DNA of 13,528 nucleotides from a virus (taxonomy: Duplodnaviria; Heunggongvirae; Uroviricota; Caudoviricetes). The stretch lies in the IMG/VR virus record IMGVR_UViG_2778261256_000011; one strand, 5' to 3'. Positions 1 to 13,528 of this stretch are shown here, piece after piece (position 1 is the first letter of the stretch; every line of letters begins with the position of its first letter). The translations under genes were made by a program, and so were the position numbers. Below the pieces are notes generated by a model that was given only the letters and a program-made list of their open reading frames with translations, did no database searches and had not been told where the DNA came from.

Positions 1-570
1 TGTCGTTCTCAAAATCGGTGGAGCTGCATGACAAAGTCATCGGGCATTATCTGAACATAAAACACTATCAATAAGTTGGAGTCATTACCCGCATGATTCA
101 GCAGATAAATCCTTGAAAGCAGGTACTCAGCCCTCAGTGAACAGAATAAGTCAGCGTAATGTACTTTAGTGCTGACCACGTGCTCTGTATGATACAGAAT
201 CTATCTACTATAAACGAAAATACAGCACGATCAATGCTCACACTCTATATGGGACGTTCGTACCTGGACATGATTATCTGTGTTCAATGTCCCCGCATGA
301 CCGTCTTAACATCCAGAATATTACGTTTCCAAAAAAACCAGAAATGATAAAAAATGAGCTTAACGTACAATAATTTTCGATATCCAAACTGACCCCGTAA
401 AGGATGTTTCGGCTCTCTTATCGCAGCGTCTGAAACTGGCAGTGCTTGTTTGGCATGTCCGGATAGACCCGAGTGCCACCAGTCAGCCAAAGAGGTTGCG
501 ATTTCGATGTATGGGAAGTTCGTTGGCTTCCCCAATGACAAAATCAAGAAAACCAGAAAGGTAAAAACAC

Positions 571-3500
571 ATGAAGGCTCTGATGGTCAGAACTGACTTC
601 TCCCTGGGAGAGTCGGCTCTAAAAGCAGAAAACGCGGTGAAAATCGCGAGAGACGCTGGCTACACCGCTGTCATTTCCGCCGACAGCATGAATATTGCCA
701 GTGTAATCCCTCTGCAACGTGCCGCTGGCGACGACATGTCGGTAATTTGTGGCGTTAAGCTGAATGTTGTCGACGATCCGACATACGAGCACCGCGCTCG
801 CTTGGCGAAAGAGTCAGGAAGATGTATGGAATCATTAGTTCGTGATCGCAGCTACTGTTTCACGGCACTGATAAAGAATGAACAAGGTTATCGCGACGTG
901 TGCGAACTGATGACCTTAGCGAACAAACGCGAGCAATTCTACTTTGTCCCGCGTCTGGCGCTTGAGCAGCTGGCAGCCGCATATGCCAAAGGCAACATCA
1001 TCCTGCTGACGTCCGACATTGGCAGTGTATTCCAGCGCCGGGACTTCGCAAAAATTATCGGGACGCTGGTCACAGCTGGCGGTCGCGATAACTTCTACAG
1101 CGTGGTTTATCCGCACCCTACCCCATTCTACGACCAGATTAACGTCCGGGCGATGAAAGTGGCGAGCGCACTGAAAATAGAGCCAGTGGCGTTCTATCCC
1201 GCTTATTACGAAGCGATCGACGACGCTGACATTAAAGACATTGCGCACATGGTTACGAACAACATCAAAATCGACCAGCCGCATCGTCTGCGCATCCCCC
1301 ACCAGCGAGATAACGCTGTTAATGGTCGTCGCCATCTCCTTGAAGCGCTGAAAGCCTTCTCCGTTCGCATGGGCGTACCGGTAACAGCTGCAATGGCCTC
1401 AACAACGCAGGACACCATTATTGAAGCCTGCACATGGCGCTGGCATGAACTGCCACCAGCACTGCCCAAGATGGCAGACGACGAGCCTGCAACGCTGATG
1501 AAGCTGGCTGTCGCGGGGCTACGCAAGCGTCTAACTACTAAAGAGTTTGGCTACACACCACAGGCTTCTGAGCACCGAGTGTATGTTGAGCGACTGAAGT
1601 ACGAAATGGACACACTGACCCGTCTGGGCTTCTGTGGCTACTTCCTGATGGTACGCGATCTGATGAATCACAGCCGTGAAACTGGCATTCCTGTCGGGCC
1701 AGGTCGTGGTTCCTCTGCCGGTTCTCTGGTGGCGTGGTGCATAGGCATAACCAACGTCGATCCTATCCGTCACGGTCTTCTGTTTGAGCGTTTCATCAAC
1801 CCTGAACGTCTTGACTTACCGGATGCGGATCTGGACTTCAGCCAGGCACGTCGTCATGAGGTGATCGAGTATCTGAATGAACGCTATGGCGAAGATTACG
1901 TTGCCGGTATTCCAAACTTCACCTATCTGGGCGCCGCTTCTGCGCTGCGAGACACTGCGCGTATTTACGGTGTCGACGCTGCGGATATGGCGGTATCCAA
2001 AGAGTTCAAGAATCTGGAAGACGATAGCCTGTCTCTGGAAGAGCTGCGCGAGCAACTGGCCAGCCTGGACAAATACGCCACGAAAAACCCGGAAGCGTTC
2101 AAAGCGGCGTGTAAGCTACAAAGCCTGATGCGTGGTTTTGGCCGTCATGCAGCGGGGATGATCGTCGCTGGCGTTCCACTGGTAGAGCGCACGCCCGTCG
2201 AGCTGCGTGGCAACGCTCGCTGTATTGCATTCGATAAACGTTACTGCGAGGCAATGGGGCTGATTAAGCTGGACGTTCTCGGTCTGGCAACGCTCGATCT
2301 GCTGGATAGCGCGAAACGCTACATCAAAGAGAGTACCGGGGAAGACATCAATCTCGATGCTATCCCACTGGACGATCGCAAAGTTCTGGATGGGTTCGCT
2401 GCAGGGTACACTCAGGGCGTATTCCAGCTGGAGTCCGGCCCCATGCGCAAGCTGCTTAAAGATCTGGGCGGTGGCATTGAGCCAATGAGCTTCAAAACCG
2501 TTGTCGCCACGACCGCACTCTTCCGACCTGGCCCGATTCAATCAGGCATGTTGGACGACTATGTCTCCGTGGCCAAAGGCTTCATGGCTCCACATTCAAT
2601 TCATCCGCGTCTTGAGGAAGTCACCCGGGAGACTAATGGTGTTTTGCTCTATCAGGAACAAATCATGCAAAGTTCCCGAGTACTTGCCGGGTTCTCTATG
2701 GCCGAAGCAGACGCTCTGCGTTCCGCTATCGGTAAAAAGAACATGGATAAGATGAAAGCGATCGGCAGCGATTTTGTAGAACGAGCACAAGCAGGCTGGG
2801 TGACACTGTCACTCAAAAATGGAGGTACTGTAGAGGTTCACAAACACGCAAAACTGGATTGCTCAGACGGTAAGCGTAGAAGCTACAGCGAGGCTATTAG
2901 TGACGGCATAGACTACGTGGAGATCGTCTCTGAACAAGAAGGTCTCAGTAAGGAAAAAGCCCAAGAAATATGGGACGCCTTTGAGAAGTTCGGTGGATAT
3001 GCCTTCAACAAATCACACAGCGTTGCTTATTCTTTAATCAGCTATCAGTCTATGTGGTTAAAGACACATTACCCTGCTGAGTTCTTCGCTGCTGCGCTCA
3101 CCATTCTGGGCGAGGATAAGCACCAGGGCTTAGTTAAAGATGCGCTGACCTATGGCATTCGCGTATTGCCACCAGACGTTAACGTGTCATCTAACCGAAT
3201 TGAGATCCGCACGCTGGAAGACGGCAGTCAGGTTCTGTATGCACCATTCTCTGCTGTGAAAGGCTGCTCTGAGAATGGTTGCCAGGCCATCATGAGAGCG
3301 CGTGAGAAAGTTGGCGGCAAATTCGAATCACTGGCGCAATTTGAGGAATCTGTCGAGAAGCGAGCATGTAATAGCCGGGTACGCGAGTCGCTGCAAAAAG
3401 TCGGTGCGTTCGCATCGATTGAGCCTGGCTGTCTGCCAGCGACAGATCCGGAACGACTGCGCGACCAGGCAGAGTTGATGGGCAATCTGGTGATCGACGC

Positions 3501-4077
3501 TGTAAAAGCCTCTCGACCGTTCGAGATGAACCCTAAGCGCTCTGCCGAGGTGAATGTACTGATGACTCGCATGGCGGCCGAAATGGGTCTGGGAGACGAC
3601 CTGATCCGCCCAAGCATTGGCATTAAGCCGAAAATCATGGTCATTCTGGACAACGCGAACGGCAATGATGGGCGTACCGGCTACTTCATGGAGAACGGCT
3701 ACGACGACTTTAAGGCGAAGTTGCTTACTGCAGGCGATCTGCGCATGGGCGATCTCTACGTCACAGGCGTGTGCAAAAAGGTGAAGGACAAAGAGAAGGA
3801 CTACACCAAAGACGAGATCGGCCAGTTCACCGACTTTATGCGTGAAGAGATCAATCTGGTGCGTCCGACCTATGTACTGACGTGTGGCAGCCGGGCGACG
3901 TCGCTCTTCAACAACAAGAGCAAACCATCCGACCTGGTTGGACGCAAAGAGTATCTGCCGGAGCTGGATGCGACCGTTTTCTACGGATTTAACCCGAATA
4001 TCCTTTACTTCCGACCGGAAGAAGGAGAGCGACTGGAGGCCATTCTGACTGATATTGCGGAGACGATAAATAAGTAA
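571..4077 (+). CDS. dnaE: DNA polymerase III alpha subunit homologue (DnaE-type, family C replicative polymerase), 1168 aa
   Basis: Translation contains the hallmark DnaE palm/fingers motifs: GYFLMVRDLMNHSRETGIPVGPGRGSSAGSLVAWCIGITNVDPIRHGLLFERFINPERLDLPDADLDF, LFRPGPIQSGMLDDY, VLLYQEQIMQ, and FGGYAFNKSHSVAYSLISYQSMWLKTHYPAEFFAA. Length is close to E. coli DnaE (1160 aa). The N-terminal PHP region (MVRTDFSLGES) lacks the two His of the usual HxH metal motif, so it is a divergent paralogue. AAGG Shine-Dalgarno 9 nt before ATG 571; TAA TAA double stop at 4075-4080. Confidence 0.9.
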   Translation: MKALMVRTDFSLGESALKAENAVKIARDAGYTAVISADSMNIASVIPLQRAAGDDMSVICGVKLNVVDDPTYEHRARLAKESGRCMESLVRDRSYCFTALIKNEQGYRDVCELMTLANKREQFYFVPRLALEQLAAAYAKGNIILLTSDIGSVFQRRDFAKIIGTLVTAGGRDNFYSVVYPHPTPFYDQINVRAMKVASALKIEPVAFYPAYYEAIDDADIKDIAHMVTNNIKIDQPHRLRIPHQRDNAVNGRRHLLEALKAFSVRMGVPVTAAMASTTQDTIIEACTWRWHELPPALPKMADDEPATLMKLAVAGLRKRLTTKEFGYTPQASEHRVYVERLKYEMDTLTRLGFCGYFLMVRDLMNHSRETGIPVGPGRGSSAGSLVAWCIGITNVDPIRHGLLFERFINPERLDLPDADLDFSQARRHEVIEYLNERYGEDYVAGIPNFTYLGAASALRDTARIYGVDAADMAVSKEFKNLEDDSLSLEELREQLASLDKYATKNPEAFKAACKLQSLMRGFGRHAAGMIVAGVPLVERTPVELRGNARCIAFDKRYCEAMGLIKLDVLGLATLDLLDSAKRYIKESTGEDINLDAIPLDDRKVLDGFAAGYTQGVFQLESGPMRKLLKDLGGGIEPMSFKTVVATTALFRPGPIQSGMLDDYVSVAKGFMAPHSIHPRLEEVTRETNGVLLYQEQIMQSSRVLAGFSMAEADALRSAIGKKNMDKMKAIGSDFVERAQAGWVTLSLKNGGTVEVHKHAKLDCSDGKRRSYSEAISDGIDYVEIVSEQEGLSKEKAQEIWDAFEKFGGYAFNKSHSVAYSLISYQSMWLKTHYPAEFFAAALTILGEDKHQGLVKDALTYGIRVLPPDVNVSSNRIEIRTLEDGSQVLYAPFSAVKGCSENGCQAIMRAREKVGGKFESLAQFEESVEKRACNSRVRESLQKVGAFASIEPGCLPATDPERLRDQAELMGNLVIDAVKASRPFEMNPKRSAEVNVLMTRMAAEMGLGDDLIRPSIGIKPKIMVILDNANGNDGRTGYFMENGYDDFKAKLLTAGDLRMGDLYVTGVCKKVKDKEKDYTKDEIGQFTDFMREEINLVRPTYVLTCGSRATSLFNNKSKPSDLVGRKEYLPELDATVFYGFNPNILYFRPEEGERLEAILTDIAETINK

Positions 4078-4082
4078 TAAAG

Positions 4083-4107
4083 AAAAACCCGCCATTTGGC
4101 GGGTTTT
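4083..4107. terminator. Bidirectional rho-independent terminator between convergent genes
   Basis: aaaaaCCCGCCatttGGCGGGtttt: GC-rich 6-bp stem (4088-4093 / 4098-4103), 4-nt loop, T-run on the plus strand and A-run (T-run on minus) on the other side. It sits between the polymerase stop and the stop of the minus-strand gene. Confidence 0.65.
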
Positions 4108-4666
4108 ATGCGCAAATTTTTTCGCAGTCTTGCGAGTGACTGAGTGAGCGAGTAACTCTCTCCACCTCATGAATGTCGCCCAACGATCTTATACGCAGGG
4201 CAAGATTCCACGTACTCAATGTGCGCGCGTTACGCACCAGTTCTTCCCGTGCTTTTTCGTCTTTGCTGTCAAGACGACCGCAGTCGTTCAACCATTTAGC
4301 GACTTCCGCCCAGTCCCAGAGTGGAGACTGACCGCTGATACGCTGAACAGGGCAAGGAAAATCACCTTTGCCACGTAATCCGTCTTTAAGCAGAGTAATA
4401 GCCTGGCGCGTTAAGCCAGAGAGTTGAGCAATATCGCTCAAGCCTACCAGTGCTGAATCTACCGATTCCACCACTGCGCCAATGCCTGCTGTTTCAATAT
4501 CAAGGATTGCCGATTCGATTGCTTCATCTAAAGATTTAGCTTCTCGGTCAAATTCTACATACACTGAGTTTCCGTAGTAGCAAATGAGCGCATCATCGCA
4601 ACCGTGGCTATACAGAGCATCTGCGACTACGCAGTACTGACTACAGGTTATCAGAATTATCCCCAT
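4106..4666 (-). CDS. Hypothetical protein with a central helix-turn-helix-like segment; N-terminal region weakly HicB/UPF0150-like
   Basis: 186-aa ORF starting at ATG (plus 4664-4666), convergent with the polymerase gene. Segment LSDIAQLSGLTRQAITLL looks like an HTH recognition unit; the preceding SLDEAIESAILDIETAG resembles the helix of HicB-type antitoxin domains. No convincing Shine-Dalgarno and no partner toxin ORF nearby, so both the call and the function are tentative. Confidence 0.4.
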   Translation of the reverse strand: MGIILITCSQYCVVADALYSHGCDDALICYYGNSVYVEFDREAKSLDEAIESAILDIETAGIGAVVESVDSALVGLSDIAQLSGLTRQAITLLKDGLRGKGDFPCPVQRISGQSPLWDWAEVAKWLNDCGRLDSKDEKAREELVRNARTLSTWNLALRIRSLGDIHEVERVTRSLSHSQDCEKICA

Positions 4667-4756
4667 TTACATCAGCTTATCTACGTCAGCCCTCAAGTTC
4701 TTCAGCAAGCCAGCTCCACCGCCTGATTCCAACATGATAAAATTGATATGCGAAAA

Positions 4757-4775
4757 TAAGTATATAGATAACATT
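4757..4775 (+). promoter_or_regulatory. Copy 1 of bipartite motif TAAGTA-N6-TA(T/A)CATT (TAAGTAtatagaTAACATT), directly abutting ATG 4776
   Basis: Shares the TAAGTA half-site, the 6-nt spacing and 6/7 of the second half-site with the copies at 5226-5244 and 10003-10021. All three lie upstream of plus-strand genes. Confidence 0.3.
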
Positions 4776-5207
4776 ATGAGCACCGATATCTACGAAAAAA
4801 TCATGTCCGATCTGGAGTTCGACCGCGACAATCTGGAGGAAGTCTGGCGTCAGCAACCGCGTCTGTTGATGGAGTATGGCTCTAAGCTGGCACGGGCAGA
4901 ACGTGAGGTTGCAGATGCAAAACTCTCTCTCGACGCGATCGAGGCAAAAATCTATGACAACGAGCGTAAGAGCTTGAGTATGAATGGAATTAAGTTTAAT
5001 GAATCCGTACTGGAAGCGAAGGTTAGAACCAACCCGCAATACCTCGCAAAGCGCCAGAAACTCGACGATGCTCGACACATTGCAGACCTGTACAAGCACG
5101 CTGTAGCCGCCTTCTCCCACCGCCGCGATATGATTGTCCAGGCGTCGAAGATGGCTATCGTAGAGATAGAGCGTCTGGGGGCCGAACGATTCCATTTACC
5201 CCGTTAA
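4776..5207 (+). CDS. Hypothetical charged, predicted coiled-coil protein (143 aa from ATG 4776; the ORF track's alternative start at 4734 gives 157 aa)
   Basis: Open frame with protein-like composition (ARAEREVADAKLSLDAIEAKIYDNERKSL). The overlapping minus-strand ORF 4686-5195 has Cys-rich, non-protein-like composition. Neither candidate start has a clear Shine-Dalgarno; 4776 was chosen because the conserved motif copy lies immediately upstream of it. Confidence 0.45.
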   Translation: MSTDIYEKIMSDLEFDRDNLEEVWRQQPRLLMEYGSKLARAEREVADAKLSLDAIEAKIYDNERKSLSMNGIKFNESVLEAKVRTNPQYLAKRQKLDDARHIADLYKHAVAAFSHRRDMIVQASKMAIVEIERLGAERFHLPR

Positions 5208-5225
5208 TTTATGCTAGATAGTAAG

Positions 5226-5244
5226 TAAGTACTAATCTATCATT
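5226..5244 (+). promoter_or_regulatory. Copy 2 of bipartite motif TAAGTA-N6-TATCATT (TAAGTActaatcTATCATT), about 80 nt upstream of the ssb start
   Basis: 15/19 positions identical to the copy at 10003-10021 with identical half-site spacing; the core AGTACT is palindromic. Confidence 0.3.
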
Positions 5245-5326
5245 CTTCTCGCTCGAAAGAGCCACGAACAAACGAACGCCCAATGCGCATAGCGCCAATG
5301 GCCACAATCACAACAAGGAGAAATAC

Positions 5327-6343
5327 ATGTCTAAGTCATTACTTGATCTGCTTAACAAGACCCGTGGCGATATTGCTTCCAAACGTGGCAATAACATTGA
5401 TTTGACCCGTCTGAAAGATGGCAATAACTATCTGCGCATTTTTCCGAACAAGGACGATCCGAATGGCGTGTTCTTCCAGACTTTCGGTATGCACTACGTT
5501 AAGCATCAGAATGAGGAAGGCAAAGATGTAACCACCGCCTATATCTGCGAACAACACACCCACGGCCACGCTTGCCAGCTGTGTGAGATGGTTATGGAAG
5601 GTCGCGCTCGCTTTAAGGGCAACAAAGCGATGGAAGAGCGCATTAATAGTATGCGTGCTACGCCGCGTTATCTGGTCAACGGTGTTCTGTCTGCGCGTGA
5701 AGACTTTGCGGACGCAGAGAAATGCCAGCTAATTGAGCTGCCGTCTACGGTCTTCGACGATATCTGCAAAGTGATGTCCGAAGATATTGCGGACGATATT
5801 GGCAACCCACTGAGCAAAGAAGAAGGCTATGCGTTCCTGATTAAACGCACCGGTTCCGGTCGTGACACCAAGTACGACGTATCCCCGAAACGTAAAGTCT
5901 ACAAAGGCGACATTCCTGAGAAGCTCTGGACTACCCAACACGATCTGATCGCATATGCGAACCAGTCTGACGAAACTCGTTTGCTGTCCACGGCTCGCAC
6001 TATGGGTCGTCTGATTGGTATTGCGGCTCCGGCAGCAACTATGCCCTCACCAGCCATTTCTTCCGCTGCAAAATCAGCCGCAGCTGGACTGCCAGGCTTT
6101 GGCTCTATCACTGGACATACGGAAGGCACAGCTGCTGTCGCTACAGCACATACTCCGGCGCCAGAGTCCACCAGCCTGGTTGATGAAGAGATCCTGCGAG
6201 CAGCTGAAGCTGAGTTCAAACCGGAAGAAGCGAAAGCTCCGGAAGCCACCGAAGCCGCAAGTGCTTCAGCATCTGCTGCCGCTGCATCTGTACCAGCTGA
6301 TGAAGGTCTCGATGACCTGCTGGCTGAACTGGACGCTCTGTAA
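5327..6343 (+). CDS. T4 gp32-like single-stranded DNA-binding protein with zinc-binding subdomain, low-complexity linker and acidic C-terminal tail
   Basis: N-terminal pattern LKDGNNYLRIFPNKDDPNGVFF parallels the gp32 LDNAGNGQAVIRFLPSKND region. His/Cys cluster CEQHTHGHACQLC fits the gp32 His-Cys3 zinc site. C-terminal third is Ala/Ser/Pro/Glu-rich and ends in the acidic DDLLAELDAL. Strong AAGGAG Shine-Dalgarno 6 nt before ATG 5327; TAA stop followed by a terminator. Confidence 0.75.
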   Translation: MSKSLLDLLNKTRGDIASKRGNNIDLTRLKDGNNYLRIFPNKDDPNGVFFQTFGMHYVKHQNEEGKDVTTAYICEQHTHGHACQLCEMVMEGRARFKGNKAMEERINSMRATPRYLVNGVLSAREDFADAEKCQLIELPSTVFDDICKVMSEDIADDIGNPLSKEEGYAFLIKRTGSGRDTKYDVSPKRKVYKGDIPEKLWTTQHDLIAYANQSDETRLLSTARTMGRLIGIAAPAATMPSPAISSAAKSAAAGLPGFGSITGHTEGTAAVATAHTPAPESTSLVDEEILRAAEAEFKPEEAKAPEATEAASASASAAAASVPADEGLDDLLAELDAL

Positions 6344-6359
6344 TCCCATAACGTGACCA

Positions 6360-6388
6360 GTAAGGCGTCTGCGGACGCCTTACTTTTT
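6360..6388 (+). terminator. Rho-independent terminator after ssb
   Basis: GTAAGGCGTCtgcgGACGCCTTAC: perfect 10-bp stem with a 4-nt loop, followed by TTTTT (6384-6388). Confidence 0.75.
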
Positions 6389-6403
6389 GGAAGGAGTGTA
6401 CCG

Positions 6404-7348
6404 GTGAATTATCTCTTTGTGGACGGTAACAGCCTGGGCTATTACCACCAGCAATCCGACAAATTACACAACGGCGAGATGGAAGTTCAGGCGGCTTTTG
6501 GCTTCGTGAAGAACGTTCGTCGTTACGCCTCAATTCTCCATGCCCGGCCAATGATCTTGTGGGATGGATTCAGCGACAAACGTCGCGACTTCTACCCGGA
6601 GTACAAAGCGAACCGCGACGACGACCCGGACATGAAGAAGATGAAAGAAGGCTTTGCCATCCAGAAGCCGTACATCTTGAAAATGATGACCGCGCTGGGC
6701 GTTAACCAACTCATTGCAAAGGACGCAGAAGCGGATGACCTGGCTGGAATGCTGGTCTCTCGTCTGGCTCCGCAGCCGACTGTTGACCATATCTATCTGC
6801 TAACGGGCGATGGCGACTGGCTCCAGCTTGTTCGTGAGAACGTGAGCTGGATAAGCCTGCGTGAAGACGCCAAGCACAAGCAGGTGAACTTCGAACAGTT
6901 CGCAGAGCTGACCGGTCTGCCGACCCCACGCGCGTTTCTGGAAGCGAAAGCGTTGCAGGGCGATAACTCGGACAACATCAAAGGCGTAGGTGGCATTGGT
7001 GATGGTGGCGCGAAAGAGCTGCTTCATGAATGGGGAAGCGTGGCCGCAATGGTACGCGGCATTAACGACGGTTCCATTGTCATCAACAAAGGTCGCTATA
7101 AGACGGCATTCAACAAGCTGGCAAAGAACGCCTTCAACGAGAAGACGGGCTGCCGGATGCTCGAAGCCTTTAAGCGCAACATGATGCTGATGAACCTTAT
7201 CGACACAAAATTCCCACCCAGCGAAATCGAGTCGATTAAAGGCGCACGCGATATGAGCGCCTTTGAACAGATGTGTTACGAGCTGAATTTCCGTTCGTTT
7301 CTGGAAGATCTGGAAGTGTTTGTTCTGCCGTTTGAGAGGTATTGCTGA
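6404..7348 (+). CDS. 5'-3' exonuclease / flap endonuclease (DNA Pol I 5'-nuclease / T5 D15 / T4 RNase H family), GTG start
   Basis: Conserved family motifs: LFVDGNSLGYY (N-terminal metal site), EADDLAGMLVS, LLTGDGDWLQL, and the H3TH motif ALQGDNSDNIKGVGGIGDGGAKELL. The GTG at 6404 is 7 nt after GGAAGGAG and lies just downstream of the terminator hairpin; the ATG at 6353 used by the ORF track would put the hairpin inside the coding sequence. TGA stop at 7346-7348 overlaps the next ATG (TGATG). Confidence 0.85.
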   Translation: MNYLFVDGNSLGYYHQQSDKLHNGEMEVQAAFGFVKNVRRYASILHARPMILWDGFSDKRRDFYPEYKANRDDDPDMKKMKEGFAIQKPYILKMMTALGVNQLIAKDAEADDLAGMLVSRLAPQPTVDHIYLLTGDGDWLQLVRENVSWISLREDAKHKQVNFEQFAELTGLPTPRAFLEAKALQGDNSDNIKGVGGIGDGGAKELLHEWGSVAAMVRGINDGSIVINKGRYKTAFNKLAKNAFNEKTGCRMLEAFKRNMMLMNLIDTKFPPSEIESIKGARDMSAFEQMCYELNFRSFLEDLEVFVLPFERYC

Positions 7349-7614
7349 TGCTGAAATCCATCATTAATGGCGGGGCAACTACGCCAACCATGCTGGCAAA
7401 GGAGATTGTTTTCTGCCACGGCGAGCACGCTGTGGTAGCGCTGCCGAACATTCTGGGCGCTGCTGGCATCTCTGCTACTGAGCGTGAGTTCGCGCTGGTC
7501 AGTGAGCAGGTCGTGAAGATCATCGCTCGCGTCGCCAAACACCTGAACCACGACGCAATCAAGTTTGACGAAGCCGCTGCTTCGAAGCGAATCAACGAAT
7601 CAAAAGGAGCCTAA
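7348..7614 (+). CDS. Hypothetical 88-aa protein, translationally coupled between the nuclease gene and recA
   Basis: ATG overlaps the upstream TGA; TAA stop 2 nt before the recA ATG; GAGG about 9 nt upstream. No recognisable motifs. Confidence 0.5.
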   Translation: MLKSIINGGATTPTMLAKEIVFCHGEHAVVALPNILGAAGISATEREFALVSEQVVKIIARVAKHLNHDAIKFDEAAASKRINESKGA

Positions 7615-7616
7615 TC

Positions 7617-9959
7617 ATGGCAAAAGGCAAATCCGCACTGGCACTGGCGCTGAAAAAGAAAATCGGCAGCAATGACGAGATTCAGAAGGTCTCCCACTGG
7701 ATTGACTCCGGTTTCCCTCCACTGAACAAAGCCATTTCCTGACGTTACGACGGTGGTTTTCCGTGTGGGCGTATCGTTGAAGTCTTCGGGCCACCAAGCG
7801 CGGGGAAATGTGTTACCGCAGACACCATGCTGCTGACGGAGCGTGGAATGGTAACAGTGAAAGAACTGTTTGAGATTGAGGGGCACAAAGCAACATGCAC
7901 TACTCGCGATGTAGAGCATAACGTTGGACTCATCAATGAAAATGGCGTGATAGAGAAGACCTCACACCTGACATGGAACAACCGTCGCAAATTCAAGCGC
8001 ATTAAGCTGGCATCAGGGGGTTACATCGAGGCTACGTTCCGTCACCCAATTCGTGTGGTTGACGACTTAGGCAATATCGTCTGGCGGTATGCTGAAAAAA
8101 TCAGTGTAGGCGACACGATTCCTTCAATGGTTGGCACACATCAATTCGGCGATCAGCACTTGGATGCCAATATCGCAAAACTGATGGGCTATTTAATTGC
8201 TGACGGATACGTGGCCTCTGAAAATTCTGTGCATTTTTCTAACACAGATCCATTCATCAAGGATGAGTACTACCGCCTCATTTCGCTGGTATCAGACAAG
8301 ATGCCAGTTACGAGAAAACATAACGGCTCGGAAGACCATGTGCTGTTTAGCAAAGAGGTGCGTTCGCTGCTTTTTAAAGAATATGGTCTGGAGTATGAGA
8401 AAGCTGCTGGCAAGCAGGTTCCGTTGAGTGTGCGTCGCGCCAATAGCGAGGCTCAAATTGCATTCCTTCGCGGCTACTTTGAGCTGGAATGCCACGTCAA
8501 TGATGGTCGCTGCATTGAGGTTGTGAGCGCGAGTGGGTTGCTGCTACAGCAAATTCGCCTCATGCTCCTGAATCTGGGGATTACGTCAACTATCTCTGAA
8601 AAACACGTCGCAGGTTATAAAAACATATATTACCGGCTGTCATTCAGTGGCTCTAACTACGACCTTTTCCTGTCAACGATTGGGTTCGAGTCTCCGGCTC
8701 GTTTAGCAGTGGCAACCAAACGGGACATTAGTTTTGACCGCACTTATTTAGGCTACGTTCCGCACATCAGCGGCTTAGTGAAATCACTCTACGAGTCACT
8801 CACCAAGACCTCTCGTAAAGACTACGTTCTGGTAGATCACGTTATTGGCCGCGGCGATCGTGTCGGAATAGACAAACTGCGAGAAATCTATGTCTCCTTC
8901 ATTGGCAGAAAGAATCGTTTTAACGAGCATCTGTTTGCACAACTGGCAGCGGTAATTGACTCTAACTTGTTCTACGACGAAGTCGTGGCTATTGAGGAAG
9001 GTGAAGCACCAACGTTCGACGTAGCGATGCCGGAAACACACTCTTTCTGGTCTAACGGGATTATCAGCCACAACACATTCCTCGCGACGGCTGCGATGGT
9101 GTCAGCACAAACACAGGATGGTCTGGCCGTATTCCTTGACCACGAAAACAGTTTCGACGTTGGTCTGGCGGTAGCGAACGGACTGAACGCCGACGAAGAC
9201 GACGGTCAGTGGGTCTACAAACAGCCGGATACCTTCGAAGACTCCGTAGAGCTGATCGGCACAATCCTCAAGCTGGTGCGCGACGAAGAGCTTATTCCGG
9301 AAACAGCCCCTATCTGCATCGTAGCCGACTCTCTGGCGTCGATGGTTCCGAACTCGAAGGCTGAGAAGTTCGACAAGATGGCAGAAGGCACTGCGAAGGA
9401 CAAAGATCAGCTGAACATGAACGACAACACGGCGCTGGCGCGCGCGACAAGTGCGAACTTCCCTACTCTGGCGCTTTGGGCGCGTAAGTACAACGCGTGC
9501 ATCATCTTCTTGAACCAGGTGCGTACCAAAATTGGTGTGATGTTTGGCGATCCGACTACGTCTCCGGGTGGCGACTCTCCGAAGTTCTACGCGTCGGTGC
9601 GCATCCGTCTGGGTGCATCCGTCATGAAGGATGGCAAAGAGAAGATCGGACAGGACGTTGGCGCCGAGTGCATTAAAAACAAAGTCGCGCCTCCGTTTGG
9701 CAAATGCTCATGGAAATTCTACTTCGACCCGACTCGCGGGCTGGACGTCGTCGAGTCTCTGGTTGAATACATGCTGGAGGAAGGATACCTGCCCAAGAGC
9801 GCCAGCGGGCGTGTGGAAATTGGCGAGAAGAAATACACCAAATCGCAGATCGTCGAGATGTACCGCGAGAAGCCACTCCCGGAAATCATCGCAGCACTCC
9901 AGGCGATAGACGAACGGCGAGCGAAAGAGTCGTCACCAGCAGAGACAGAAGAAGCGTAA
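7617..9959 (+). CDS. recA: RecA recombinase homologue (bacterial RecA type) interrupted by an intein in the P-loop and by an in-frame TGA in the N-extein; may be a pseudogene or need stop-codon readthrough
   Basis: AAGGAG Shine-Dalgarno 7 nt before ATG 7617. N-extein MAKGKSALALALKKKIGSNDEIQKVSHWIDSGFPPLNKAIS, then TGA (7740-7742), then in the same frame RYDGGFPCGRIVEVFGPPSAGK (Walker A; compare E. coli RecA [21 protein letters not shown]). C-extein TFLATAAMVSAQ ... CIIFLNQVRTKIGVMFGDPTTSPGGDSPKFYASVRIRLGA closely matches RecA [38 protein letters not shown]. No ATG/GTG/TTG lies in frame between the TGA and the P-loop. Spliced product would be about 357 aa. Confidence 0.85.
7809..9074 (+). mobile_element. 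Intein (422 aa) with LAGLIDADG homing endonuclease domain, inserted between the Walker A Lys and the following Thr of RecA
   Basis: Begins with Cys directly after GPPSAGK (CVTADTMLLTE, block A) and ends with SHN followed by a +1 Thr (block G). Block B TxxH is present (ATFRHPIRV). Two LAGLIDADG motifs (LMGYLIADGYV and FLRGYFELECHV). Block F-like VVAIEEGEAPTFDVAMPETHSFWSNGIISHN. Removing the segment restores a contiguous GPPSAGK-TFLATAAM P-loop. Confidence 0.85.
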
Positions 9960-9965
9960 TCACAA

Positions 9966-9987
9966 GACGTCCATTGGACGCCTTTTT
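9966..9987 (+). terminator. Probable rho-independent terminator after recA
   Basis: GACGTCCattGGACGCC: 7-bp stem with one mismatch and a 3-nt loop, followed by TTTTT (9983-9987), 7 nt after the recA TAA. Confidence 0.5.
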
Positions 9988-10002
9988 ATACTTGAAAGTA
10001 TA

Positions 10003-10021
10003 TAAGTACTTACTTATCATT
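10003..10021 (+). promoter_or_regulatory. Copy 3 of bipartite motif TAAGTA-N6-TATCATT (TAAGTActtactTATCATT), 28 nt upstream of ATG 10050
   Basis: Contains the perfect 10-bp palindrome TAAGTACTTA; matches the other two copies in both half-sites and spacing. Confidence 0.3.
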
Positions 10022-10049
10022 TCTACACCCAAACGACAAAAGGAAACAC

Positions 10050-10250
10050 ATGATTAAGGGTTATCTCATGGCTGTTTCAGCAGTGGTATCAGTCTGCTTT
10101 ATTTACGGTTTACTGGTTCCATCGCTTATATCAGCTAAAAGCGATCTGGCCTTCTTTATCGGACTTGCCATCGCTTTAATCTTCCCGGTTGCCTTGTTAA
10201 AAGCTGGCCGCAGGTATATCAACTCACTCAATAAAACTAAGGAGAAGTAA
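10050..10250 (+). CDS. Small (66 aa) predicted two-helix membrane protein
   Basis: Two hydrophobic stretches (AVSAVVSVCFIYGLLVPSLI and LAFFIGLAIALIFPVALL) separated by a short polar turn; basic C-terminus. AGGA 5 nt before the ATG; TAA stop. Confidence 0.5.
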   Translation: MIKGYLMAVSAVVSVCFIYGLLVPSLISAKSDLAFFIGLAIALIFPVALLKAGRRYINSLNKTKEK

Positions 10251-10253
10251 GTA

Positions 10254-10445
10254 ATGAAGAAAGGTTTACTGGCGGTGGCTTTGGCTGCTATTTGCACAAT
10301 GGGTCTGACCGGCTGCGATCGCGTGGAACCGGGATACGTTGGCATTAAGGTAAACAAATTGGGTGAAGACAAAGGTATCGGTGAAGTTGTCGGCGTTGGC
10401 CGTCAGTGGACTGGTCTGAATACCGAGCTGTACACCTCTCTTTAA
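10254..10445 (+). CDS. Small (63 aa) predicted lipoprotein
   Basis: Signal peptide MKKGLLAVALAAICTMGLTG followed by Cys (lipobox LTGC). GGAG 9 nt upstream. Mature part about 43 aa (DRVEPGYVGIKVNKLGEDKGIGEVVGVGRQWTGLNTELYTSL). Confidence 0.5.
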   Translation: MKKGLLAVALAAICTMGLTGCDRVEPGYVGIKVNKLGEDKGIGEVVGVGRQWTGLNTELYTSL

Positions 10446-10468
10446 GTCATCTTAAATGACTCTGAGGT

Positions 10469-10516
10469 GTCTGTTAAACCTGTGGCGATTCAGTCTATTA
10501 AACCTGTAGCGATTCA
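10469..10516. repeat. Two tandem copies of a 24-bp unit (GTCTGTTAAACCTGTGGCGATTCA / GTCTATTAAACCTGTAGCGATTCA; 22/24 identical)
   Basis: Direct reading of the sequence: units at 10469-10492 and 10493-10516 in perfect register. Located in the intergenic region where the sequence appears to shift to lower GC, upstream of hsdM. Confidence 0.8.
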
Positions 10517-10677
10517 CTTTATGGTGTCATAAACTTAAATCTAGCGCCGGGTAGAACAAGTTAATCGAACGATGTAGCGGCCATTTAGGCGTTACAGAAA
10601 GAACAGAATTTTAAATTTATAGTGAAGCCGTTGCAGCAACTTTGTGGGGTGCAACCAACACTGAACAGGAAAAGAAA

Positions 10678-13107
10678 ATGGATCATAGTGTACATAACAA
10701 GCTCATCTCATTTATTTGGAACATTGCCGACGACTGTTTACGTGATGTGTACGTTCGCGGTAAGTACCGCGATGTGATTTTACCTATGGTGGTATTACGA
10801 CGTTTAGATACGTTACTTGAACCCACCAAAGAAGCCGTGCTTGAAGAGGTCAAGTTCCAAAAAGAAGAGATGCAAGCCACGGAGCTTGATGATGAACCAT
10901 TGAAGGCGGCTAGTGGTTATGTTTTTTACAATACATCTAAATGGACCCTGAAATCCCTGTTCAACACCGCAACGAATAACCAACAGATATTACTCGCCAA
11001 CTTTGAAGAGTACCTGCTTGGCTTTAGCGATAATGTTAAAGAAATCATTGAATGCTTTAACCTCAAGTTGCAAATTCGTCACATGGCCTCAAAGCAAGTC
11101 CTTCTTGATGTCGTCGAAAAGTTTGTTTCCCCTTACATCAACTTAACTCATGAAACGGTCGAAGACCCAGATGGCAACAAGATGCCAGCCCTTACTAACC
11201 TGGGTATGGGGTACGTGTTCGAAGAGTTGATCCGTAAGTTCAACGAGGAGAATAACGAAGAAGCCGGTGAGCACTTTACACCTAGGGAAGTGATTGAGCT
11301 GATGACACACTTGGTTTTTGACCCAGTGAAAGAGCAGCTACCATTGACCATGACCGTTTACGACCCTGCGTGTGGTAGCGGTGGTATGCTCACTGAATCT
11401 CAAAACTTCATTGAAGAGAAATACCCGAACGACAGCCGAGATATTTACCTTTACGGCAAAGAGATCAATGACGAGACCTACGCGATTTGTAAATCGGACA
11501 TGATGATCAAAGGTAACAACCCTGAGAACATCAAGGTAGGCTCAACCTTGTCTACCGACGAGTTTGCGGCTTCTCGCTTTGACTTTATGTTGTCTAACCC
11601 GCCATACGGTAAGAGTTGGGCGTCTGAACAGAAGTACATTAAAGACGGCAGTGATGTGATTGACCCGCGTTTTAAGGTTAGCCTGAAAGACTATTGGGGA
11701 AATCTCGAAGTGGTGGATGCCACGCCACGTTCGAGTGATGGCCAGCTGCTTTTCTTAATGGAGATGGTCAACAAGATGAAAGATCCGAGCGTAAGTCCAT
11801 TAGGCAGCCGGATTGCCTCTGTTCATAACGGCTCATCGCTCTTTACCGGTGATGCGGGCAGTGGCGAAAGTAATATTCGTCGCTTCATCATTGAAAACGA
11901 CATGCTAGATGCCATCGTTCAGTTACCTAATAACCTGTTCTATAACACTGGCATTACCACTTACATTTGGGTGTTGAACAACAATAAACCTGAGGCGCGT
12001 AAAGGTAAGGTGCAATTAATTGATGCCAGCTTGCTCTACCGTAAGTTGCGCAAGAACTTAGGTAACAAAAACTGCGAATTTGCGCCTGAGCACATCACGG
12101 AAATTACCGATACTTACCTCGCGTGTAAGGATGTTGAAAGAGCACTGGATGCAAACAATGATCCTGTTGGCATCGCCAGTAAGGTATTCAGCAATGACGA
12201 TTTTGGCTACTACAAAGTCACTATAGAGCGCCCAGATCGCCGCAAAGCCAAGTTTACTCAAGACGCAATAGCCCCACTGCGTTTTGATAAGCAACTTAGT
12301 GAAGTGATGGAGTACGTGTACGCAGAGCACGGCGAACGTGTTTACGAAAAAACTGGCTACGGGTCAGCTCAGAAAAAGAGCTTCTTAAAATCCATCGAGA
12401 AAGACATTCTTTCTTGGTGTGAAGATAACGACATCAGTCTCAATGCTAAGGCTAAGGCCAAACTGCTTGATGTGAAACACTGGCTGGCGCTAAAAGCATT
12501 GCTTGAAACTGCACAAACGCTGATGGCTGACATCGGTAGCATTGAATTTGATGACTTCAATAGCTTTAAAACCCAAGTTGATAAATCGCTAAAAGCCCAT
12601 GCTATTAAGCTTTCAGCACCTGAGAAAAATGCCATTCTTCACGCGGTGAGCTGGTATGACGAAACCGCCAAGAAAGTGGTTAAAAAGGTAGTTAAATTAA
12701 CGGGTGATAAATTAAACGACCTGCTGGAGCGCTATGAGTGTGAAGTCGCTGACTTGCCAGATTTTGGTTATTACCCCGTTCCTTCAGCAGAAGGCGGTAA
12801 AAAAGGCGAGTATATCACTTACGAGACCAATTCAGACCTGCGAGATACAGAATCTGTTCCATTAAAGCAAAGCATTTACCAGTACTTCCTAGATGAAGTG
12901 AAGCCTCATGTCGATGAAGCATGGATAAACCTAGATACGGTAAAAATTGGCTATGAAATCAGCTTCAATAAGTATTTCTACCGTCATAAACCGCTGCGTA
13001 GTTTAGAAGAGGTCGCAACCGACATCATCAACCTAGAACAAAAAGCCGAAGGTCTCATTGCGCAGATATTGGGTGTTAAAGTGGCGGAAGCTCAGGGAGA
13101 AGCGTAA
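10678..13107 (+). CDS. hsdM: Type I restriction-modification system methyltransferase subunit HsdM (long form, about 809 aa, with C-terminal extension)
   Basis: N-terminal HsdM domain (ISFIWNIADDCLRDVYVRGKYRDVILPMVVLRRLD), AdoMet motif I VYDPACGSGGML, and N6-adenine catalytic motif IV LSNPPYG. Start moved to ATG 10678 (AGGA 7 nt upstream) rather than the upstream alternative-codon start at 10642. TAA stop overlaps the next ATG (TAATG). Confidence 0.85.
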   Translation: MDHSVHNKLISFIWNIADDCLRDVYVRGKYRDVILPMVVLRRLDTLLEPTKEAVLEEVKFQKEEMQATELDDEPLKAASGYVFYNTSKWTLKSLFNTATNNQQILLANFEEYLLGFSDNVKEIIECFNLKLQIRHMASKQVLLDVVEKFVSPYINLTHETVEDPDGNKMPALTNLGMGYVFEELIRKFNEENNEEAGEHFTPREVIELMTHLVFDPVKEQLPLTMTVYDPACGSGGMLTESQNFIEEKYPNDSRDIYLYGKEINDETYAICKSDMMIKGNNPENIKVGSTLSTDEFAASRFDFMLSNPPYGKSWASEQKYIKDGSDVIDPRFKVSLKDYWGNLEVVDATPRSSDGQLLFLMEMVNKMKDPSVSPLGSRIASVHNGSSLFTGDAGSGESNIRRFIIENDMLDAIVQLPNNLFYNTGITTYIWVLNNNKPEARKGKVQLIDASLLYRKLRKNLGNKNCEFAPEHITEITDTYLACKDVERALDANNDPVGIASKVFSNDDFGYYKVTIERPDRRKAKFTQDAIAPLRFDKQLSEVMEYVYAEHGERVYEKTGYGSAQKKSFLKSIEKDILSWCEDNDISLNAKAKAKLLDVKHWLALKALLETAQTLMADIGSIEFDDFNSFKTQVDKSLKAHAIKLSAPEKNAILHAVSWYDETAKKVVKKVVKLTGDKLNDLLERYECEVADLPDFGYYPVPSAEGGKKGEYITYETNSDLRDTESVPLKQSIYQYFLDEVKPHVDEAWINLDTVKIGYEISFNKYFYRHKPLRSLEEVATDIINLEQKAEGLIAQILGVKVAEAQGEA

Positions 13108-13528
13108 TGGAGCGTTTAGCATTGATGCCGAAATATGAGGATTATGTAGATTCTGGAGTTGAATGGTTAGGGGATTTACCGAGCCATTGGGACGCAGTAA
13201 AAATGAAGTTTCTTTTCAAAGATACGTCGATGAAAAACAAGCCTAACGAAACTTTATTATCTGTTACACAAAGTCAAGGTGTTGTTCCCAGAGAGTGGGT
13301 AGAAAACAGAATGGTTATGCCATCTGGCAATCTAGAAAGCTTCAAGTTCATTGCAAAAGGTGACTTTGCTATAAGCCTTCGTTCCTTTGAAGGTGGTTTG
13401 GAGTATTGTCATCATGATGGAATCATAAGCCCTGCTTATACGGTGTTAAAAACTAAGAAAGATTATCTACTTGCAGGATATTACAAATATTTGTTTAAAA
13501 GTCAGACTTTTATTTCAGAGTTACAAAC
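13107..13528 (+). CDS. hsdS: Type I restriction-modification specificity subunit HsdS, 5' portion only (runs off the window end)
   Basis: Translationally coupled to hsdM. Translation MERLALMPKYEDYVDSGVEWLGDLPSHWDAVKMKFLFK ... KGDFAISLRSFEGGLEYCHHDGIISPAYTVLKTKKDYLLAGYYKYLFKSQTF fits the HsdS target-recognition-domain pattern. It is absent from the ORF track because no stop is reached before the window ends. Confidence 0.75.
   Translation, partial: MERLALMPKYEDYVDSGVEWLGDLPSHWDAVKMKFLFKDTSMKNKPNETLLSVTQSQGVVPREWVENRMVMPSGNLESFKFIAKGDFAISLRSFEGGLEYCHHDGIISPAYTVLKTKKDYLLAGYYKYLFKSQTFISELQ

Follow-up and report, generated by a model that had tools for sequence, protein, structure and literature searches.

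The window analyzed here (the whole stretch of 13,528 nucleotides of the IMG/VR virus record IMGVR_UViG_2778261256_000011) contains the gene for a phage-type RecA-like recombinase, the P-loop of which is split by an insert of 422 codons (7809-9074). This insert is almost certainly the already published RecA-c2 intein, a class-1-type intein with a LAGLIDADG endonuclease, located in a copy of the SSU5-family recombinase gene that has been either inactivated by a TGA codon or misread. In a survey of RadA and RecA inteins, five insertion points, a to e, were distinguished (Topilina et al, 2015; Nucleic Acids Res 43:6631; PMC4513877), and Table 1 of that study lists the intein c2 (residues 65-486) in the RecA P-loop of eight strains of Escherichia coli, two of Enterobacter, and one of Salmonella. 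In the window, the insert begins at precursor residue (7809-7617)/3+1 = 65 and ends at residue (9074-7617+1)/3 = 486. As the residue numbers, the site, and the host genera equal those of c2, it is the same element; both the RecA-c2 intein at its P-loop site and its presence in E. coli have thus been on record since 2015. The novelty of the site implied by the original prediction, which had been made from the letters of the window alone, did not survive comparison with this catalogue. The sole feature specific to the window is a nonsense codon upstream of the intein, which leaves the copy nonfunctional as written.

Architecture of the intein and its host gene

The insert (1,266 nt) is in frame and stop-free, and neither of its junctions contains a start or a stop codon. 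It directly follows the codons for GPPSAGK (7788-7808), begins with cysteine, and ends with His-Asn before a threonine (Thr+1, residue 487, ACA at 9075-9077), from which the host protein reads on as TFLATAAM; in the translation, both ends and the length of 422 aa are exactly as originally predicted. All canonical class-1 residues are present, namely Cys1, the threonine and histidine of block B, the terminal His-Asn, and Thr+1 (Table 1). The TxxH signature of block B and the two LAGLIDADG motifs were also found as predicted, and in the second motif, E227 sits opposite the catalytic aspartate of the PI-PkoII GDG in the alignment.

Profile searches agreed with the predicted intein and endonuclease character of the insert. 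Pfam LAGLIDADG_3 (PF14528) was matched with an E-value of 7.6e-19 (68.2 bits; cut-off 22.5), Intein_splicing (PF14890) with 3.2e-12 (47.0 bits; cut-off 35.8) over residues 9-422, and TIGR01445 (intein_Nterm) with 36.4 bits (cut-off 24.5). Partial matches to NCBIfam models fell on the intein portions of those for the archaeal RFC small subunit, IF-2, GyrA, DnaB, and VMA, and a sequence search of the PDB with the intein returned PI-PkoII and the VMA inteins of Thermococcus and Pyrococcus. An AlphaFold2 model of the intein, computed from an alignment including distant allelic inteins, had a mean predicted local distance difference test (pLDDT) score of 86 and a predicted template modeling (pTM) score of 0.88; in it, the N-terminal and the C-terminal part of the insert together make up the Hint domain. 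The top PDB matches of this model obtained with Foldseek were all endonuclease-containing inteins, with TliVMA (7qss; E-value 2e-25, template modeling score 0.75) as the best, followed by PI-PfuI (1dq3), PI-TkoII (2cw7), PhoVMA, and PI-SceI (1vde). The mini-inteins 4oz6 and 1am2 matched the splicing part, and I-DmoI and I-Tsp061I the central domain. The predicted fold is that of a bifunctional intein, and by sequence and predicted fold together, the segment is an intein with a nested LAGLIDADG homing endonuclease.

The host gene starts with ATG at 7617, six bases downstream of a ribosome-binding site (AAAGGAG), and its stop codon is at 9957-9959. When joined without the insert, the exteins matched Pfam RecA with an E-value of 4.6e-42 (144.7 bits; cut-off 27), whereas the score for the bacterial RecA equivalog TIGR02012 (135.1 bits) was well below its cut-off of 325.3, and the PHROG match was phrog_97, "UvsX-like recombinase" (E-value 8e-92). 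Judged from these three matches, the host protein is a phage-type, UvsX-like recombinase of the RecA family and not a cellular RecA; the RecA host named in the original prediction therefore holds at the level of the domain, but not for the cellular protein. Orthologous, intact coding sequences (CDSs) of 2,343 nt are annotated in pYUXYEH3934-1, pCFSAN006211, and E. hormaechei FRM under the three names that NCBI gives to copies of the gene ("LAGLIDADG family homing endonuclease", "recombinase RecA", and "intein-containing recombinase RecA"); WP_022649903.1 is a further example of an intact allele. PHROG 9666, a profile of 779 positions, spans the entire precursor; its function is given as unknown. 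The Walker A motif of the joined exteins, GPPSAGKT, is nearer to the GPPGxGKT of clamp loaders (RFC) than to the GPESSGKT of classical RecA, and it is at the GPPxxGK motif of the precursor that the match to the RFC small-subunit model begins, which might conceivably point to a target preference that the endonucleases have in common.

For intact copies, the calculated masses of the precursor, the joined exteins, and the intein are 86.6, 39.0, and 47.7 kDa, respectively. Such a precursor would splice to give a 39.0-kDa recombinase with a GPPSAGKT P-loop and the free 47.7-kDa intein, and as the ATP site could not form before splicing, recombinase activity would depend on it. When two phage-plasmids share a cell, the endonuclease would be expected to cleave the P-loop codons of an allele lacking the intein; with the occupied allele as the repair template, the intein would then be copied in along with a few flanking bases, as the population patterns described below suggest.

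Occupied and empty alleles in SSU5-family phage-plasmids

Megablast matches were found in Salmonella phage SSU5, Escherichia phages Cyrano and PhiR41_1, and Klebsiella phage p4727, as well as in 763 records of plasmids from Klebsiella, Escherichia, Enterobacter, Yersinia, Salmonella, and Citrobacter. By sequence similarity, the host replicon is thus an SSU5-family phage-plasmid of Enterobacteriaceae; the closest record is the E. coli plasmid pYUXYEH3934-1 (99.7% identity over the gene region and 99.47% over window positions 396-13528). Among 5,426 complete E. coli genomes, there were 227 matching places, every one of them on a plasmid and none on a chromosome, from which it follows that the gene is the phage-plasmid's own recombinase and not the cellular RecA. 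A sample of 86 alleles was assembled from the window, annotated records, and IMG/VR contigs; for the latter, the best 80 of 118 matches were used, ranked in a way that favors full-length (empty) alleles, and a scan of genome contigs gave 4 loci. Because of this ranking, occupancy was derived from the plasmid records and the E. coli genomes instead, a record being counted as carrying the intein when it covered at least 80% of the query. Under this definition, the intein is carried by 231 of the 763 plasmid records (∼30%) and by half of the matching E. coli genomes (114 of 226).

The 86 alleles comprised 61 empty and 25 occupied ones, and the insert was exactly 1,266 nt long in every occupied allele. 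In SSU5, the gene product is annotated as a "putative RecA-like recombinase" of 358 aa, and its GPPSAGK runs straight on into TFLATAAM, which makes this a precise empty site; the same is true for 60 further alleles. Removal of the insert restores the P-loop, as had been predicted, and the segment is an insertion rather than a native domain. The DNA of the SSU5-type empty site reads GCCGGTAAA / ACCTTTTTG (the slash marking the insertion point); the stretch GGGCCGCCAAGCGCCGGTAAA / ACCTTTTTGGCAACGGCTGCGATG of the SSU5 empty site corresponds to the occupied-type flanks GCGGGGAAA / ACATTCCTC.

Compared with the window, the intein DNA of Cyrano, PhiR41_1, and p4727 is 97-99.9% identical, whereas their exteins are only 84-85% identical, the contrast in p4727 being 99.9% versus 84%. 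For the 184 pairs of occupied alleles with an extein identity of 80-86%, the mean identity was 97.9% for the intein and 83.7% for the exteins. Occupied and empty alleles occurred side by side in at least four extein clades, even where the alleles diverged by less than 2%. The intein was preceded by GCG GGG AAA and followed by ACA TTC CT in 25 of 25 occupied alleles, while GCGGGG was present in 4 and ACA in 2 of the 61 empty ones; beyond these shared codons, the flanks revert to the local background within ∼10 nt. All 25 intein copies are open and have kept both LAGLIDADG motifs, and their variable codons comprise 40 with synonymous changes only and 33 with amino acid changes. The shared flanking codons fit what very short co-conversion tracts would leave behind, and together with the contrast between intein and extein identity, they fit homing into empty alleles. 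The original suggestion that the endonuclease could drive homing into intein-free recA alleles is, therefore, in line with the population data, including the patchy distribution of the intein.

The population pattern looks like the textbook signature of ongoing homing, and the chances that an intein is currently homing in the SSU5-family phage-plasmids found in E. coli, Klebsiella, Salmonella, and Enterobacter may be put at about even, on the basis that about a third to half of the alleles are occupied, that the intein is nearly identical in recA backgrounds differing by 16%, and that the co-conversion tracts apparently measure ∼6-10 nt. If so, the homing and decay of an intein could be followed in these elements in a natural E. 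coli setting that is amenable to genetics, and the TGA-containing copy of the window would represent an early step of the decay phase. P-loop inteins are possible post-translational switches of ATPases, for which a mesophilic example from E. coli would be experimentally convenient. As a discovery, the intein itself carries little weight, since it has already been described and annotated; what is added is its context, namely its residence on phage-plasmids of the SSU5 type, a common vehicle for accessory genes in Enterobacteriaceae. No relevant literature linking SSU5-like elements or phage-plasmids with inteins was found.

The premature stop codon and alternative explanations

In the window, the N-extein contains an in-frame TGA, which had been missed in the original prediction, at codon 42 (Table 1), 23 codons upstream of the intein. 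The sequence context of Gly42 is LNKAISGRYDGGFP. All 85 relatives in the allele sample read NKAISGR[YF]DGGF at this position, their open reading frames (ORFs) are intact, and no premature stop was found in any of them; the TGA is thus unique to the window among the 86 alleles, the closest record, pYUXYEH3934-1, having GGA. The 32-mer bearing the TGA had no exact match in viral (IMG/VR) or metagenome collections. It is because of this codon that the program-made list of ORFs shows only 7827-9959. Three changes in the recA-like gene are private to the window: the TGA, a synonymous change at 8538, and K499T (A-to-C at 9112), which affects an otherwise invariant lysine of the C-extein (SAQKQDG). 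The TGA and K499T look damaging, although three private changes are too few to test for relaxed selection.

As translation from 7617 ends after 41 residues (a predicted peptide of 4.4 kDa), the window copy as written yields neither precursor, nor recombinase, nor intein, and it has no uninterrupted frame through both exteins; the intein coding sequence, on the other hand, is still intact. Given the break upstream, it would be wrong to annotate this copy as a functional recombinase or intein. That an active recombinase requires protein splicing, as originally stated, is supported, but splicing is not the sole obstacle here because the TGA ends translation first. In-frame ATG codons are present at 7827 and at 7848, and the second of them is preceded by GGAG at a distance of 6 nt. 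Internal re-initiation at 7848 is conceivable but unsupported, and the product, lacking Cys1 and block A, could not splice.

Genome-wide recoding of TGA (genetic code 4 or 25) was considered and rejected, as dnaE (1168 aa) and hsdM (809 aa) of the window have normal frames and the relatives have GGN at codon 42. Likewise, selenocysteine insertion or a structured readthrough signal was rejected, as the 70 nt of RNA downstream of the TGA fold no better than shuffled sequences (z 0.16). More generally, it is very unlikely that codon 42 is decoded at all, be it by near-cognate Trp readthrough or via a recoding signal, and that the window copy, still yielding a little precursor, is a down-tuned functional allele. 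In favor of decoding, the TGA is followed by C, and UGA-C is the least efficient stop context in E. coli termination; moreover, the 2.2 kb beyond it are open and nearly identical to intact alleles. An open frame, however, is to be expected anyway after a very recent mutation. Further evidence against decoding is that the relatives invariably have a glycine codon and never TGA, that the TGA-bearing 32-mer is found nowhere else in the collections searched, that the remaining long ORFs of the window have normal, TGA-free frames, and that the downstream RNA, by the above measure, shows no more structure than shuffled sequences.

Two further explanations concern the insert itself. That the recombinase family natively includes the 422-aa segment as a domain, or that a free-standing endonuclease gene was fused to the recombinase by misannotation, would accord with the fact that PGAP names many copies "LAGLIDADG family homing endonuclease" and that PHROG 9666 models the 779-aa protein as a single family. 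This notion is refuted by the 61 close orthologs that lack exactly these 1,266 nt and have a continuous Walker A motif; in addition, the first residue of the segment is Cys and its last two are His-Asn, followed by Thr; it matches intein splicing models at both ends, is predicted to fold like solved inteins, with both termini contributing to the Hint domain, and has junctions devoid of start and stop codons, which renders the explanation practically negligible. Alternatively, the intein could be a fixed, vertically inherited passenger with a dead endonuclease, its patchy distribution being caused by repeated precise losses. Decay does occur in this family, the endonuclease domain being degenerate or deleted in the distant allelic inteins P0011, P0015, P0017, and P0018. 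An intein that is ∼98% identical across exteins that are ∼84% identical is, however, impossible by vertical descent; furthermore, occupied alleles have private flanking codons in common whatever their background, and the copies are uniformly open with both motifs kept and with synonymous-only codons outnumbering the amino-acid-changing ones (40 versus 33). The passenger scenario must, therefore, be considered highly improbable.

Some points do weigh against the favored interpretation of the segment as the RecA-c2 intein with a homing endonuclease, borne by an inactivated or misread recombinase copy. Two distant allelic inteins (P0004 and P0007) have Gly at the position equivalent to E227, so that the second catalytic acid is uncertain from sequence. 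Part of the higher conservation of the intein could stem from recombinational exchange of longer recA stretches instead of endonuclease-driven homing; the switch of the flanks to the local background within ∼10 nt is contrary to this. Finally, the TGA is most simply read either as an inactivating mutation of very recent origin or as an error in base calling, between which one sequence cannot decide.

Gene neighborhood and relation to known inteins

The recA-like gene is part of the replication and recombination module of the SSU5-family phage-plasmid; the features of the gene and its neighbors are compiled in Table 1.

Table 1. Coordinates of the intein, its host gene, and neighboring genes in the window.
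Feature	Position	Strand	Remarks
Intein-containing phage-type RecA-like recombinase gene, whole	7617-9959	+	780 codons + stop; premature TGA in the window copy
N-extein, 64 codons, last residues Walker A GPPSAGK	7617-7808	+	Aligns with the SSU5 empty allele
In-frame TGA, codon 42, single G-to-T change at 7740	7740-7742	+	Gly (GGA, GGT, or GGG) in all 85 relatives
Intein, 422 aa, residues 65-486 of the precursor; Hint splicing domain split by LAGLIDADG endonuclease	7809-9074	+	
Cys1 (TGT), N-terminal splicing nucleophile, block A CVTADT	7809-7811	+	Conserved in all aligned allelic inteins
Block B, T76-F-R-H79 (EATFRHP)	8034-8045	+	Column is T-x-x-H-P in the family alignment
LAGLIDADG motif 1, KLMGYLIADGY, residues 124-134, acidic D132	8178-8210	+	Aligned to the PI-PkoII motif
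LAGLIDADG motif 2, FLRGYFELECH, residues 219-229, E225 and E227	8463-8495	+	Aligned to PI-PkoII GYFIGDGDV
Block G, His421-Asn422, C-terminal splice junction	9069-9074	+	SHN followed by T conserved across the family
C-extein, 294 codons + stop, first residue Thr+1 (completes Walker A GKT)	9075-9959	+	Pfam RecA match of the joined exteins
DNA polymerase III alpha gene (dnaE, 1168 aa)	571-4077		Upstream of the recA-like gene
gp32-like single-strand-binding protein gene	5327-6343		Before the recA-like gene
5'-3' exonuclease gene	6404-7348		Before the recA-like gene
88-aa ORF	7348-7614		Just before the recA-like gene

Several differences from related elements were observed around the gene. Window positions 1-395 could not be aligned to pYUXYEH3934-1, in which an AAA-ATPase gene lies upstream of dnaE; they may represent a different upstream gene or a mosaic junction. 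Within dnaE, 32 of the 70 mismatches to this plasmid are packed into ∼560 nt (3261-3822), which suggests that this patch was acquired by recombination with a more distant allele. The small ORF at 4776-5207 (+) is 7 codons shorter than its annotated counterpart in pYUXYEH3934-1 because a C-to-T change at 5205 creates a stop codon (Q144*). This difference was considered as possible damage and rejected; as the window form ends exactly where the PHROG 2058 profile ends, the longer form of pYUXYEH3934-1 is probably the variant. From 9968 to 13528, the window is 100% identical to pYUXYEH3934-1. Here, hsdM starts (10678-13107, +), coding for a type I restriction-modification methyltransferase (809 aa), and the region continues to 13528; in pYUXYEH3934-1, the genes after hsdM are those for the S subunit, a DUF4268 protein, and the R subunit. 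SSU5, Cyrano, and pCFSAN006211 have an SPFH/band-7 gene at the position of hsdM, after the gene for a 66-aa membrane protein (10050-10250).

A database search with the intein alone revealed allelic inteins with 28-45% identity at the same site (between SGK and T, beginning with C and ending with HN) in other RecA proteins. As c2 is listed only in Enterobacteriaceae in PMC4513877, they extend the host range of the site, which is a modest addition. Some of them (P0007 to P0010) are found in phage-like contexts (P0009 corresponds to L093:4001-6217), and one, P0011 (L092:3001-5166), is located in a canonical RecA with the RecA C-terminal domain, encoded on a 550-kb contig (GCA_027484465.1). Degenerate or deleted endonuclease domains, as seen in this family, are to be expected when the homing cycle has reached its stage of decay.

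The c2 intein of PMC4513877 and that of the window share the protein, the site after the Walker A lysine, the length of 422 aa, and the host genera; they differ in the premature TGA at N-extein codon 42 of the window copy. Moreover, PMC4513877 treats the host of c2 as the "bacterial RecA" of E. coli and contains no analysis of its plasmid or phage context or of its population pattern, whereas the gene described here is located on an SSU5-family phage-plasmid and was never chromosomal. PI-MtuI of Mycobacterium tuberculosis is also a LAGLIDADG-containing intein in RecA, but it occupies site a (residues 252-691; PMC4513877), after KVVKNK at the monomer-monomer interface, and not the P-loop. As originally predicted, the two sites are distinct: the homologous ECIKNKVAPPF is contiguous in the C-extein of the window, and the score for the model of mycobacterial-type intein-containing RecA, NF007072, was only 96.4 bits (cut-off 1024).

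The Hint domain with an inserted two-motif LAGLIDADG domain is shared with the archaeal P-loop inteins of the RFC small subunit and of IF-2 and with the VMA inteins. Models of the RFC small subunit were the best profile match outside RecA (E-value 2e-22 for the whole precursor and 1e-17 for the intein alone), and the solved inteins TliVMA, PI-SceI, PI-PfuI, and PI-TkoII, which stem from other host proteins and domains of life, are only 10-20% identical. Similarity of this order does not permit a claim of direct descent from RFC, IF-2, or VMA inteins. The Pyrococcus horikoshii RadA intein (c1), the structure of which has been determined (Oeemig et al, 2012, as cited in PMC4513877), was not among the matches of the PDB and database sequence searches with the intein of the window. 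It is a mini-intein without endonuclease from a hyperthermophilic archaeon, whereas the intein of the window carries the endonuclease. Both occupy homologous P-loop positions, with Lys at -1 and Thr at +1, and in both, splicing would be needed to rebuild the ATP site. The sequences of c1 and c2 inteins are little alike, and independent invasions were inferred (PMC4513877).

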